Below are positions 1 to 4,057 of a stretch of 4,057 nt of DNA, piece after piece. How positions within the stretch are numbered: position 1 is the first letter of the stretch; each line of letters starts with the position of its first letter. Below the pieces are notes generated by a model. The model saw only the letters and a program-made list of their open reading frames with translations. It was not told where the DNA came from and did no database searches. Made by a program: the position numbers and the translations under genes. The DNA is taken from positions 1-4,057 of the IMG/VR virus record IMGVR_UViG_2693429733_000020; one strand, written 5' to 3'. The stretch comes from a virus (lineage: Duplodnaviria; Heunggongvirae; Uroviricota; Caudoviricetes).

Positions 1-262
1 AAATAAATAACGCGTCGCCGGAAGCCACGTCATAAACCGTTTTACCCCGATGATCTTCAACGAGATGCCACGATGACTCATCACTGTTGAAAACAGCCAC
101 GAAACCAGCCGGAATATCTGGCGGTGCAATATCGGTACTGTTTGCAGGCAGACCTGTATGAGGCGGAATATATGCGTCACCTTCACCAATAAATTCATTA
201 GTTCCGGCCAGCAGGTTATAAATTTTTATGGTCCGTGCTTGTTCACTCATTCTGAATGCCAT
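1..262 (-). CDS. tfa: tail fibre assembly protein (Tfa), N-terminal 87 codons; gene continues beyond the window start
   Basis: Reverse-complement translation from ATG at 262..260 gives [87 protein letters not shown]..., which matches the lambda Tfa N-terminus as I recall it almost residue for residue. GAGG Shine-Dalgarno 8 nt upstream. Start overlaps the stf stop (TAATG). Open to the window edge. Confidence 0.9.
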
Positions 263-3200
263 TATGCGAGCCTCACAATATAGTTAAATGCGATGTTTTT
301 GACGGTGTTTTCCGCGTTACCAGCAGCGTTAACGGTGATGGTGTGTCCATGTGAACCAATCGCAACAGAGTGCGTATGAGCACCAATACCGACAGTATGC
401 GCGTGTGCACCCGCAGATGCTGCTGTGCCGGACAGTGAGTGTGTATGGTTTCCTTCTGAAGATGATTTACCTACCCATTGGGAGGTGCCACTGGTTAATG
501 AGCCACTGATACCAACCTGATTAGTCCCGCTAACTTGAGTACTCCCTGCCGGAAACATTCCAGTAGGTTGACTCCCGCTATTCGTTCTGGGCCCAGTCTG
601 ACTATGTTGGTGGGCCCCAGCTGAACTTGTAGAGCCGCTCAGACTGTGCGTATGCGCCCCGGTGTTATTCGTGGATTTAGTGCCGTAATCAAACGACGAT
701 GTGGTTTTCGTCCCCAAATCCGTACTGGATGCGCTGGCGCTGTGGGTGTGCGATTTAATGCCATCCTGTTCCTGAGACAATACGGCACGACCACTGGCGG
801 GCTTGCCCTTAATCGTCCAGCCACGCATATCAGGGATCACGCCTGACGGATAAGCGGCTGCAAGTTTCGGGTAAGCAGATTTGTCAAAAGTCTGCCCCTG
901 CATCAGGGCATAACCAGACGGAACGGTATCTGATGGCCACGGGATTGGTGCACCGACTGGATAAAACTCTGCAGGAGGATGAGCCGAGGTGTAAAGCTGC
1001 GCCCACGGCGACCAGTTTGCGTCGGTCGTATCCCGTCGTGAACGAATAAATGCCGGAGCATGAGCACCGCTTGTACCACTCCAGCCGATGAGTAACTCAC
1101 CTTCGCCAACGGCTGTCATCCCTTTCAGGTGAATGATATTTCCATACGCTGTTGGATATCCGTTGTTATACACCTCGTATAACTCAAGACCTGCTGCCCC
1201 CTGCGTATTGTCTGTCAGCGCGGCTACCCGACCTTTTGAAGCCAGATTAACTGATGATACTGCTGTTCCACCTGACGGTAGCGCCCCGATCTCTGATGCC
1301 GTTGGCTTATTTCTGGAGTTATAGTCCCTTCGCCAGCCAGGTGAATAATCTGTTCCGTGATTAATATAGGTAAACTGGGCGTTGGTTGTTCCGCCACCGC
1401 TGGATGTGGTCGGAGTGGTAATGCGGATCGTCATCGCTGACTTTATCCCCATTACTTCAATGACAGCTCCGGCGAGATGAATATTACCGCAGCCAGTATC
1501 AGTAATGATTTTATTATTGCCATAAGACCAGGAACCCTTGCACATCCAGTATGGATGGTTAAATGCTCCCTGAGAATCCAGCCACTCGATAAACTGTGCA
1601 GTCGTCCAGTTTCCTGTTGTTGTGCTTACTGACCCACCGAAGGCACGGCAGGCACCAATATTTTTCGTAAAGGTGTCTTTGCCAGGGATATCCGCACCGT
1701 TCTGATCTTTCTGCAGACGTTTCTCAGCATTGTCATTGGCTGCTTTTACTGCCTTTGGCGTTGCCGCCAGCGTTTCAGACGTGCTGTTGGTCGCGCTGCT
1801 TAGCTGGATTATCCCTTTCTGTGCTGTCGTTGCATCCTGTGCGGTGTATTTCCCGTTAGCCAGGTCATACGCGGCCTTAACGGCTTTTGGTGTTGCCGCC
1901 AGTGACTCGGAAGTGCTGTTAGTCGCACTACTGAGCTGTACTATCCCCTTTTTCGTCGTGCTCGCATCCTCAAGCGCCACGGCGGATGCAATATCCTCTG
2001 CCCGTTTTGCCGCTGTCTCAGCGCGCGTTGCTGCAGATTCCGCCGTACTTTTGCTCTGAGCTGCTGCCGTCGCACTACCAGCAGCCTCTGTCGCCTTCGT
2101 GGATGCCGTCGTGGCGCTGCCCNNNNNNNNNNNNNNNNNNNNNNNNNNNNNNNNTCGCTGCTGACGCCTGTCTGGTCGCCTCATCTTTTGAAGCAGACGC
2201 CGATGATGCCGATGACGCCGCCGAACTGGCGGACGATGCGGCAGCCGTTTTTGAGGATTCTGCGCTGGTTTCCGACGCTTTCGCGTTCGTTTCGGATGTC
2301 TTCGCTGCGGAAGCAGACCTCGCTGCTGCGCTGGCCTGTTCAGTGGCTTCGCCAGCCTTCGTTGTGGCTGTTGAAGCGGATGATGCGGCGCTTTCTGCCG
2401 ATTTTCCGGCGGCGGTGGCACTGACTGCTGCCTCCTCTGCCTTAATGGACGCCTCACGGGCCGATGATGCAGCTGCTGTCTCAGAGTCTGCCGCAGCTGA
2501 GGCGCTCTGTTCCGCTGCCGTTTCAGAAGACTTAGCATTCGTCTCGGACGTTTTTGCCGCCTTCACGGAATTTCCTGCCGCCGTTGCCGAGGAGGCTGCA
2601 CTGCTGGCGCTTGTGGAGGCGTTCGTTTCTGATGATTTTGCCGCCTCTTTGGAGGCCGCCGCATCTCTGGCTGAAGTGGCGGCTTCTGACGCTTTCGTCG
2701 TCGCAGTGGATGCAGAAGTGGCTGCTGATTTTTGTGACGCTGCAGCATTCGTTTCTGACGTTTTCGCCGCACCGGCACTGGTGGCCGCCGCGCTTTTTGA
2801 GGACTCTGCAGCGGCAGCACTTTTTTCCGCNTGTTGAAGCGGATGATGCGGCGCTTTCTGCCGATTTTCCGGCGGCGGTGGCACTGGCTGAGGCCTGCCC
2901 GGCACTTGTTGACGCGGCGCTGGCAGACGACGCAGCCGCTGTTTTTGAGCCTGCCGCAGCTGAGGCACTCTGTCCCGCTGCCGTTTCAGAAGACCTGGCG
3001 TTCGTCTCGGACGTTTTGGCCGCCTTCGCAGAATTTGCAGCCGCCGTCGCCGAGGAAGCTGCGCTACTGGCGCTTGATGATGCGTTCGTTTCTGATGATT
3101 TTGCCGCCTCTTTTGAAGCCGACGCATCCCGGGCTGAGGTGGCAGCTTCTGACGCTTTCGTGGTCGCGGTGGATGCAGAAGTGGCTGCTGATTGTTGTGA

Positions 3201-3987
3201 CGCTGCCGCATTCGTTTCTAACGTTTTCGCCGCACCGGCACTGGTAGCCGCCGCGCTTTTTGAGGACTCTGCAGCGGCAGCACTTTTTGAGGCTTCAGTG
3301 GCCTTTGTTGATGCCGTTCCTGCGCTGGAAGACGCTGACTGAGCCGACGAAGCGGCCTGTCCGGCTGACGTGCTGGCTGCACGTGCTGAATCTGCAGCAT
3401 CAGTCGCATGGGTTGCCGCCTCACGGGCTGATGTGCTGGCATCGCTGGCTGATTTCTTCGCGGCTGCCGTGTTCTGTGCCACCGCGGACGCGTTANNNNG
3501 CGGCCTGTCCGGCTGACGTGCTGGCTGCACGCGCTGAGCCTGCAGCATCAGTCGCATGGGTTGCCGCCTCACGGGCAGATGTGCCGGCATCACTGGCTGA
3601 CTTCTTCGCGGCTGCCGTGTTCTGTGCCACCGCGGACGCGTTACGCGCCACCTCTTCCACCATCAGCTCAAAACGGCGCAGTGCCTCCGGACGGGCATCA
3701 TCCTCCGTCATGGCACCGAGAAAATCATTCAGCGTACCGGGTCGGGAATCTTCATACACGGTGATGGTCCCGGCATGTGACGGCGGGAATCCTTCCACCA
3801 ACAGAATAACGCTGTACTGACCGTACTCAACGTCCATGCTGTAACGCCCGGCTTCATCCGGATTTTCTGAGGCCAGCGTGTTCACCACCACCGTGGTGCT
3901 GTTACGTTTTGCTTTCAGCTGGATTGTGCAGTTCTGTACCGGTTTTCCTGTGCCGTCTTTCAGTACACCTGAAATCTTTACTGCCAT
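262..3987 (-). CDS. stf: side tail fibre protein (Stf), lambda-like and mosaic; reading frame as given is broken at three N-runs
   Basis: ATG at 3987..3985 (the track's GTG at 3993 is 2 codons upstream) opens [36 protein letters not shown]..., the recognisable lambda Stf N-terminus. Four collinear in-frame segments on the minus strand: 3500..3987, 2832..3495, 2155..2830 and 262..2122, separated only by N-runs. The protein ends ...[31 protein letters not shown], then TAA at 262..264, which is lambda-Stf-like. Start and stop are in the same frame overall. Segments 2 and 3 read as continuous Ala/Ser/Thr-rich Stf repeat sequence. Confidence 0.9.
271..274 (-). promoter_or_regulatory. putative ribosome-binding site for tfa, inside the 3' end of stf
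   Basis: Minus strand GTGAGGCTCGCATA-ATG: GAGG with 8-nt spacing to the tfa ATG at 262..260. Confidence 0.4.
336..750 (-). other. His-rich repeat region of the Stf C-terminal tip (HTH/HAH/HQH/HGH motifs)
   Basis: Translation contains [57 protein letters not shown]: repeated G-x-H-x-H units of the kind found in lambda Stf and T4 gp37 distal tips. Confidence 0.55.
1732..1968. repeat. in-frame coding repeat, 2 copies with period 132 bp (44 aa), encoding the KGI(V/I)[11 protein letters not shown](S/T)[11 protein letters not shown] motif
   Basis: Minus-strand translation shows [35 protein letters not shown] and [35 protein letters not shown] at 1864..1968 and 1732..1836; the DNA copies are visibly similar on the plus strand. 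Confidence 0.75.
2123..2154. other. assembly gap or ambiguous bases (32 N)
   Basis: Run of 32 n characters inside the Ala/Ser/Thr-rich part of stf. Confidence 0.99.
2369..3293. repeat. tandem direct repeat, 2 x ~462 bp (2369..2830 and 2832..3293) joined by a single N; offset 463
   Basis: Both copies start tgttgaagcggatgatgcggcgctttctgccgattttccggcggcggtggcactg and end gaggactctgcagcggcagcacttttt. About 45 bp identical, then a ~65-bp divergent block, then roughly 92% identity. Both encode ~154 aa of Ala/Ser/Thr-rich Stf repeat ([24 protein letters not shown]...[11 protein letters not shown]). Confidence 0.8.
2831..2831. other. single ambiguous base (N)
   Basis: One n character, sitting exactly at the junction of two ~462-bp tandem repeat copies. 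Confidence 0.99.
3352..3643. repeat. tandem direct repeat, 2 x 144 bp (3352..3495 and 3500..3643) separated by NNNN; 137/144 identical
   Basis: Direct base-by-base comparison: copies start gcggcctgtccggctgacg and end gacgcgtta, with 7 substitutions. Each encodes [19 protein letters not shown](G/S)[14 protein letters not shown](G/D)[12 protein letters not shown] on the minus strand. Confidence 0.85.
3496..3499. other. assembly gap or ambiguous bases (4 N)
   Basis: Run of n characters, sitting exactly between two 144-bp near-identical direct repeats. Confidence 0.99.
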
Positions 3988-3990
3988 ATT

Positions 3991-3996
3991 CACCCC
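3991..3996 (-). promoter_or_regulatory. putative ribosome-binding site for stf
   Basis: Minus strand TTGTGGGGTGAAT-ATG: G-rich stretch 5 nt upstream of ATG 3987. Weak match to the SD consensus. Confidence 0.3.
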
Positions 3997-3998
3997 AC

Positions 3999-4025
3999 AA
4001 AAAAGCCCGCCTGAACCGGCGGGCT
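3999..4025 (-). terminator. rho-independent terminator between the upstream gene and stf
   Basis: Minus strand reads AGCCCGCC-GGTTCA-GGCGGGCT followed by TTTTT: a perfect 8-bp GC-rich stem (4004..4011 paired with 4018..4025), 6-nt loop and T-tract 3999..4003. The T-tract ends 11 nt before the stf ATG. Confidence 0.65.
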
Positions 4026-4057
4026 GTCATAACACTGTGTTACCTGGCTAATCAGAA

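Follow-up and report, generated by a model that had tools for sequence, protein, structure and literature searches.

The frameshift in the side tail fibre gene, stf, of laboratory lambda PaPa is a real single-base change in determined sequence, and was reportedly documented by Hendrix and Duda in 1992. Apparent changes to a gene can also be introduced by assembly. False allelic or paralogous duplications have been described for diploid vertebrate haplotypes at the kilobase to megabase scale (Kelley and Salzberg 2010, PMC2864568; Ko et al. 2022, PMC9516828), and false duplications lying beside an assembly gap are a documented signature of this class of error (Ko et al. 2022, PMC9516828).

The window, the whole 4,057-nt stretch of DNA that was analysed, carries an stf gene interrupted by three runs of N. 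Comparison with other genomes suggests, with a probability of roughly 0.86, that it is a draft scaffold with false duplications at the joins in an ordinary lambdoid prophage stf, and stf in the organism is most likely intact, with ~1027 codons. The features of the window are as follows.

4004..4025, minus strand: terminator-like hairpin and T-run, downstream of lom and just upstream of the stf start.
262..3987, minus strand: stf, the lambdoid side tail fibre gene, in its apparent extent from ATG at 3987 to TAA at 264-262, 3726 nt, with three N-runs inside.
3500..4057, minus strand: segment A, comprising the last part of the lom-stf spacer, the stf codons 1-162 and a further 2 nt; allele type CP065615/CP017220; reference 301-858, ungapped.
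3496-3499: N-run 1, 4 N, join of segments A and B, whose reference positions overlap by 144 nt.
2832..3495, minus strand: segment B, 664 nt, second stf allele of the CP138399/64EVA type; reference 715-1378.
2831: N-run 2, 1 N, join of segments B and C, whose reference positions overlap by 462 nt.
2155..2830, minus strand: segment C, 676 nt, reference 917-1592; allele type as segment A.
2123-2154: N-run 3, 32 N, standing for one base, A or G by allele.
262..2122, minus strand: coding part of segment D (whole segment 2122-1), with the shaft end, two PF03406 repeats, collar domain, HxH-rich C-terminal tip and TAA.
1..262, minus strand: 5' part of tfa (tail fibre assembly gene), cut at the window edge; start codon ATG at 262-260, in a TAATG overlap with the stf stop.
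3352-3495, where B begins, and 3500-3643, where A ends, minus strand: putative false tandem duplication 1, 144 nt each, 7 differences, 95% identical.
2369-2830, where C begins, and 2832-3293, where B ends, minus strand: putative false tandem duplication 2, 462 nt each, 56 differences, 88% identical.

When the overlaps are collapsed, an open stf reading frame of 1027 codons is obtained, whichever copy is retained. Over its whole length the collapsed Stf shares 94-95% identity with 1023-aa Stf proteins of E. coli, the alignment containing 4 gap columns. A length of 1027 aa is also found in P0003 and P0004, which reach it through other indels, and the match in length is for this reason not specific evidence. 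The prophage tail fibre N-terminal domain, PF08400, is found at residues 1-134 (134/134 profile positions, E = 1.4e-71), and the distal part contains two stretches of PF03406 tail fibre repeats (E = 6e-37) and the PF07484 collar domain at residues 798-845 (E = 7e-12). The gene order is lom-stf-tfa. In four finished E. coli genomes (L001 to L004), the regions that match the ends of the window are annotated as Ail/Lom and tail fibre assembly genes, and the homologue found between lom and tfa in finished genomes is annotated as a prophage tail fibre. The TAATG stop/start overlap at 264-260 corresponds to an identical 1-nt stf/tfa overlap annotated in L001-L004, though the 87-aa N-terminal Tfa fragment itself had no match in Pfam. 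The N-terminal domain, the distal domains and the genetic context of a lambdoid Stf are all present.

Aligned with L001-L004, segments A, B and C lie without gaps at reference 301-858, 715-1378 and 917 onward, which gives the overlaps of 144 and 462 nt. In the window, the two copies of each overlapping stretch adjoin the gap directly, separated by NNNN in the first case and by a single N in the second. Both small N-runs are the exact single junction of 2.0-copy tandem repeats, with periods of 148 and 463. The duplicated stretches are single-copy in finished E. coli genomes and phages, and the whole window fits into 3283-3403 nt in finished genomes and phage records. Both flanks of a junction run on perfectly in the references, but in different registers. 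In megablast searches across the junctions, all matches listed were in 2 pieces within 462 or 253 nt; out-of-order halves are merged in this output, which does not discriminate. The two-piece matches were an early hint of overlap.

The third join is of another kind. The 20-mers that flank N-run 3 are exactly one base apart in L002, L003 and L004, and the alignments across this run carry a single 31-nt excess in 4/4 references, the fourth having it at the same place. The original prediction that the N counts are not true base counts is borne out here.

The segments do not all derive from the same version of the gene. Segment A has 3 mismatches to L002, 3 to L004 (CP065615) and 7 to L003 (CP138399). 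Segment B is 99.1% identical to 64EVA, with 6 mismatches to L003, 65 to L004 and 67 to L002, and segment C is 99.9% identical to CP065615, with 1 mismatch to L004 and 58 to L003. Segments A and C are of the L004 type and segment B is of the L003 type. The differences between the copies coincide with sites that distinguish L003 from L004 at 7/7 positions in the first pair and, bar a few, at the 56 positions in the second. Judged from these sites, the overlapping copies represent one stretch in two distinct natural alleles. Segment A stops right before the allele-variable columns 859/860 and segment C right before variable column 1593, while variable columns make up 10.7% of the alignment overall. 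Such end points are as extension halting where reads disagree would give.

Asymmetric queries, in which a 40-nt half served as a built-in positive control, were used to search for the junctions in 5,426 complete E. coli genomes. Junction 1 (A-B) was crossed at 0 of the 6,250 stf places that match its control half, and junction 2 (B-C) at 0 of 4,751. A 51-mer spanning 2831, a query that has no positive control, found no match in the complete genomes. Exact junction patterns, in which, as a control showed, N in the query matches a literal N, had 0 matches in 185,579 species genomes and 0 in IMG/VR, and the exact B-C pattern had 0 matches in JGI metagenomes. Over its full length, the window has no match above ~97% in complete E. 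coli genomes or phage records, and a look-up of the 164-aa product encoded by the frame as written returned no entry. The stretches that are repeated in the window are single-copy in the tiling of L001-L004, and the junctions are absent from the 5,426 genomes and the three contig collections.

These results bear on the possibility that the organism truly has an stf of ~1229-1240 codons, its Ala/Ser-rich shaft having gained 48 and 154 codons by in-frame tandem duplication, the Ns being miscounted or uncalled junction bases. The ORF does stay open to the stop whether the first run counts 0 or 3 N and the third 1 or 31 nt, with 0 N in the second, tail-fibre shafts differ in length among alleles (943 to 1092 aa in L001-L004), and the copies have diverged, as expected of old duplications. 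This reading is nevertheless very unlikely. It would need a gene composed of allele 1 up to 858, allele 2 from 715 to 1378 and allele 1 from 917 onward, with two illegitimate joins that lack junction homology and with 58 nt of allele 1 missing, and neither junction is found in >4,700 finished-genome stf copies or in the three large contig collections. A protein search with the 1229-aa model that keeps the duplications returned 7,889 matches, of which the best 120 are all 967-1028 aa, with none above 1028 aa, and N-run 3, with its 32 N, takes the place of 1 base rather than 31. Neither a contiguous junction nor an equally long homologue was found elsewhere. A true chimeric Stf of ~1229 aa, in which a 664-nt block of the second allele is inserted out of register and 48 + 154 shaft codons are duplicated in frame, is highly improbable, and this architecture occurs in none of the finished E. 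coli genomes searched.

Two observations run against an assembly artefact. The overlaps of 144 and 462 nt are both multiples of 3, which a real in-frame duplication predicts and which is a 1-in-9 coincidence if the duplications are artefactual. A genuine tandem repeat with diverged copies could also cause a de Bruijn-graph assembler to break at precisely its junction. Because of the latter, the presence of Ns exactly at the junction is not decisive, and the conclusion that the duplications are false rests on the allele map and the population evidence.

On the minus strand, open frames extend over 4026..3496 (coordinate of codon base 1 = 0 mod 3), 3662..2535 (2 mod 3), 3217..2078 (1 mod 3) and 2562..265 (0 mod 3). 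Between the flanking intact codons there are 7 nt (3501..3495), 1 nt (2831) and 34 nt (2155..2122), all 1 mod 3, and with 3, 0 and 31 N in the three runs the frame reads through to a 1240-aa product. This arithmetic, first set out in the original prediction together with the 3726-nt in-frame span, was reproduced in full on recomputation. It had been taken to mean that each gap is off by one and that the gene is an uninterrupted ORF of ~1240 codons. Instead, the 4-N and 1-N runs join overlapping segments, and collapse leaves 1027 codons, in line with the lengths of the best 120 homologues. The proposal that the gene is intact and broken only in the assembly holds in that the frame changes are all at N-runs and the segments are open, but its length is most likely ~1027 and not 1240 codons. 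The duplicated sequence that flanks two of the N-runs had been overlooked, and its presence changes the meaning of the frame numbers.

Relative to finished genomes, the net excess at the three joins is 148, 463 and 31 nt, each 1 mod 3, and stf as assembled has 642 nt too many and a broken frame. The apparent +1 frameshifts would simply be this net excess. A common phase at three independent joins has a chance of 1 in 9, and a start and stop in the same frame a chance of 1 in 3, so that the phase statistic is weak. A systematic cause of the common +1 phase was considered and rejected, as the N-run lengths are 1, 1 and 2 mod 3 and only the net excesses agree; the common phase is a 1-in-9 coincidence.

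It is scarcely credible that stf is a genuine pseudogene with real frameshifts, as in laboratory lambda PaPa, and with Ns nearby by chance. The frame from the ATG as written does end at a stop after 164 codons, cryptic prophage genes often decay, and the adjoining tfaQ of L001 is annotated as frameshifted. However, the determined bases contain no stop or indel relative to the references, the segment alignments are ungapped apart from the N-runs, and the Stf frame stays open over the whole of every segment. Since all frame changes fall on N-runs and all four segments are open, nothing points to a genuine pseudogene.

An assembly artefact would account for the arrangement as follows. Four segments (A 4057-3500, B 3495-2832, C 2830-2155 and D 2122-1) would have been linked by placeholder N-runs, A, C and D representing one stf allele and B the matching stretch of a second allele that is 5-12% divergent. 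Divergent overlapping ends that the assembler could not merge would have been laid in series by the scaffolder, and this serial placement would produce spurious tandem duplications of 144 and 462 nt beside minimal N-runs. At the third join, 32 N would have taken the place of one missing polymorphic base. The likeliest source of the second allele is another lambdoid prophage of the same genome, or else a second strain in the sample. An origin in a two-strain mixture or metagenome bin, rather than in one genome with two lambdoid prophages, is on balance unlikely. Both alleles are common natural ones and nothing links them to one genome, but the number of stf-related places in complete E. coli genomes that match the window has a median of 3 and reaches 17. 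With several such places per complete genome, two alleles in one genome is the simpler assumption.

The duplicated arrangement is most likely not a real biological feature, and the collapsed gene is an ordinary lambdoid stf that raises no biological question. Annotation of stf as deposited would yield three or four pseudogene fragments, and a 1240-aa repair would give a tail fibre with ~200 spurious residues. Either error would skew prophage intactness calls, host-range predictions based on tail fibres, and counts of tail-fibre diversity. In practice, frame arithmetic across short N-runs in phage genes that are repeat-rich or multi-copy should be trusted only once the flanks have been checked for duplication.

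Among known systems, the gene and its product resemble lambda and lambdoid Stf (e.g. StfR of Rac) with Tfa, sharing PF08400, an Ala/Ser-rich shaft, PF03406, the collar, an HxH-rich tip, the lom-stf-tfa order and the TAATG overlap; after collapse, only ordinary allelic mosaicism sets the window gene apart. As in stf of lambda PaPa (orf401/orf314), a side tail fibre gene is split into ORFs in shifted frames, but the shifts in the window all coincide with N-runs and duplicated flanks. A further likeness is to false duplications at scaffold gaps (PMC2864568, PMC9516828), where two diverged versions placed in tandem around a gap give rise to spurious gene sequence and broken frames. Unlike the cases described, those in the window appear to involve a bacterial assembly and two alleles of one prophage gene, with duplications of 144 and 462 nt and gaps of 1-4 N.

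The gene interrupted by three runs of N lies on the minus strand and, from its sequence, its identity as a side tail fibre gene (stf) is not in doubt. In its product, Pfam assigns the prophage tail fibre N-terminal domain PF08400 to residues 1-134 (E = 1.4e-71), and also finds the tail fibre repeat PF03406 twice and the collar domain PF07484. Thousands of complete E. coli genomes, and lambdoid phage records as well, align with the window in genes whose annotations are Ail/Lom, prophage tail fibre and tail fibre assembly protein. The features, the pieces between the N-runs (segments A to D) and their positions on finished E. coli loci are as follows.

Features of the window, with positions of the segments on the finished references
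3987 (ATG) to 264-262 (TAA), minus strand: stf, from sequence
ATG overlapping the stf stop as TAATG, minus strand: first 87 codons of the tail fibre assembly gene tfa, from sequence
Upstream of stf, minus strand: end part of the lom-stf spacer; hairpin resembling a terminator at 4025-4004
3496-3499: run of 4 N
2831: single N
2123-2154: run of 32 N
4057-3500: segment A, reference positions 301-858, no gaps
3495-2832: segment B, reference positions 715-1378
2830-2155: segment C, reference positions 917-1592
2122-1: segment D, starting at reference position 1594
3352-3495 and 3500-3643: tandem copies of 144 nt each, 7 differences, period 148
2369-2830 and 2832-3293: tandem copies of 462 nt each, 56 differences, period 463

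The hairpin (4004-4025, minus strand; AGCCCGCCGGTTCAGGCGGGCT then TTTTTGTGGG) is located between the end of the lom-like gene and the start of stf, with only about 10 nt separating it from the ATG (3987). Two antisense ORFs on the plus strand (283 aa at 1986-2837 and 262 aa at 2554-3342), with a high content of Ala, Asp, Phe and Val, sit opposite the Ala/Ser/Thr-rich Stf shaft, and look like shadow ORFs arising from GCN/TCN/ACN codon composition, not genes. In the finished genome CP148382, the tfaQ gene (3322-3883 of the compared locus) that follows the closest full-length homologue of stf is annotated as frameshifted, so real decay of the stf-tfa module does happen in some strains.

The first base of the Stf codons falls at window coordinates 0, 2, 1 and 0 mod 3 in the four successive pieces, and recomputing from these frames returned the inter-codon stretches originally given for the N-runs, 3501..3495 (7 nt), 2831 (1 nt) and 2155..2122 (34 nt), together with the ATG-to-TAA span of 3726 nt. 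With the Ns left unchanged, the frame opened by the ATG at 3987 ends after 164 codons, and setting the N-runs to 3, 0 and 31 N does give the read-through to a 1240-aa product that had been predicted. The common phase of the three joins is not statistically remarkable, being expected 1 in 9. That stf is a genuine pseudogene is very improbable, as all frame changes coincide with N-runs and every segment alignment is ungapped, leaving this reading without support.

Pairwise BLAST of the window against four finished loci (CP148382, CP017220, CP138399 and CP065615) gave an identical geometry in all four; in the real gene, adjoining segments therefore share 144 and 462 nt. Overlooked in the original prediction, these shared stretches are the two-copy tandem repeats listed, and the single junction of each is the exact site of an N-run, accounting for two of the three. 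Both sides of each junction run on perfectly in the references, yet in different register. The 4057-nt window fits into only 3283 or 3403 nt of the best-matching finished genomes, and phage records likewise hold it in a shorter length. In three references exactly one base (G, A and G) separates the two flanks of the 32-N run, and alignments across it carry a single 31-nt excess in all four. The base beneath this run (window 2122-2155, reference position 1593) is A or G by allele, in a Lys/Arg codon AAG/AGG, placing the third break exactly on a polymorphic site. The PF03406 repeat KGI(V/I)[11 protein letters not shown](S/T)[11 protein letters not shown], in two diverged tandem copies at 1727-1952 (minus strand; ~77-79% DNA identity), is genuine and internal, and unlike both N-flanked duplications is also found in finished genomes.

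Segment A has 3 mismatches to CP065615 and to CP017220, and segment C has 1 in 676 nt to CP065615. Segment B, however, has 65 to CP065615 and only 6 in 664 nt to CP138399 (strain 64EVA), which at 99.1% ranks first among the 4,195 records matching it. The window thus threads allele 1 (CP065615 type), allele 2 (64EVA type) and allele 1 again through one stretch of gene. The 7 differences between the A and B copies are exactly the positions at which the two alleles vary, and the 56 between the B and C copies coincide with such positions almost exactly. Segments A and C both stop directly before allele-variable columns (859/860 and 1593), which make up 10.7% of columns; this would be the expected product of extension halting where reads of two alleles disagree.

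A real in-frame tandem duplication is improbable; the sole genuine point in its favour is that 144 and 462 are both divisible by three. Since a real diverged repeat could likewise make a graph assembler break at its junction, N position alone is not decisive, but the duplication is opposed by the allele map and by the junctions being wholly absent elsewhere. Taken as a real molecule, the window would be allele 1 to 858, allele 2 from 715 to 1378 and allele 1 from 917, with two joins lacking junction homology and allele 1 left short of 58 nt. Junction queries of 25 nt, the N-run and 40 nt were searched against 5,426 complete E. coli genomes, at an E-value limit where a reportable match had to be the 40-nt half or to cross the junction; the halves were located at 6,250 and 4,751 places, none covering 80% of either query. 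A symmetric 51-mer across 2831 had no match in complete E. coli genomes. Exact junction patterns permitting 0-4 intervening bases, which do match the window itself with its literal N, gave no matches in 185,579 species (one genome per species) or in IMG/VR, nor did the B-C pattern in 241 million metagenome records. Among 7,889 homologues (E <= 1e-100) scored with a duplication-kept 1229-aa model, the best 120 were all 967-1028 aa, whereas a duplication-bearing protein would have outscored them.

The favoured explanation (probability about 0.86) is therefore a scaffolding artefact, with the stf gene itself an ordinary lambdoid one. Contig ends of two unmergeable stf alleles would have been put in series around placeholder Ns, and such tiling would need nothing special. 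The most likely source of the two alleles is a pair of lambdoid prophages in one genome, since matching genomes carry a median of 3 stf-related places; a mixed sample is less likely. The N count appears to grow with true distance (1 N for the 462-nt overlap, 4 N for the 144-nt overlap, 32 N for the 1-nt gap), a pattern that would be expected if gaps were estimated from paired ends with a lower floor.

The proposal that the N counts are meaningless and the gene probably intact holds, 32 N standing for one base in three references, but the 1240-codon ORF carries about 200 spurious codons from the duplicated 144 and 462 nt. With both overlaps collapsed and a single base in place of the 32 N, an open 3084-nt ORF of 1027 codons results, whichever overlap copy is kept; between reference positions 715 and 1378 the locus may carry either allele. 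A tip segment at 458-617 (minus strand), between HxH motifs (…[26 protein letters not shown]…GNHTHS), matches CP148382 and has no alignment to CP017220 or to 1023-aa Stf proteins; these alignments mark it as a cassette exchanged within the probable receptor-binding tip, an instance of ordinary tail-fibre mosaicism. Aligned end to end with the 1023-aa proteins, the collapsed product shows 94-95% identity and 4 gap columns, and the residual differences cluster in the usual variable cassette at the C-terminal tip.
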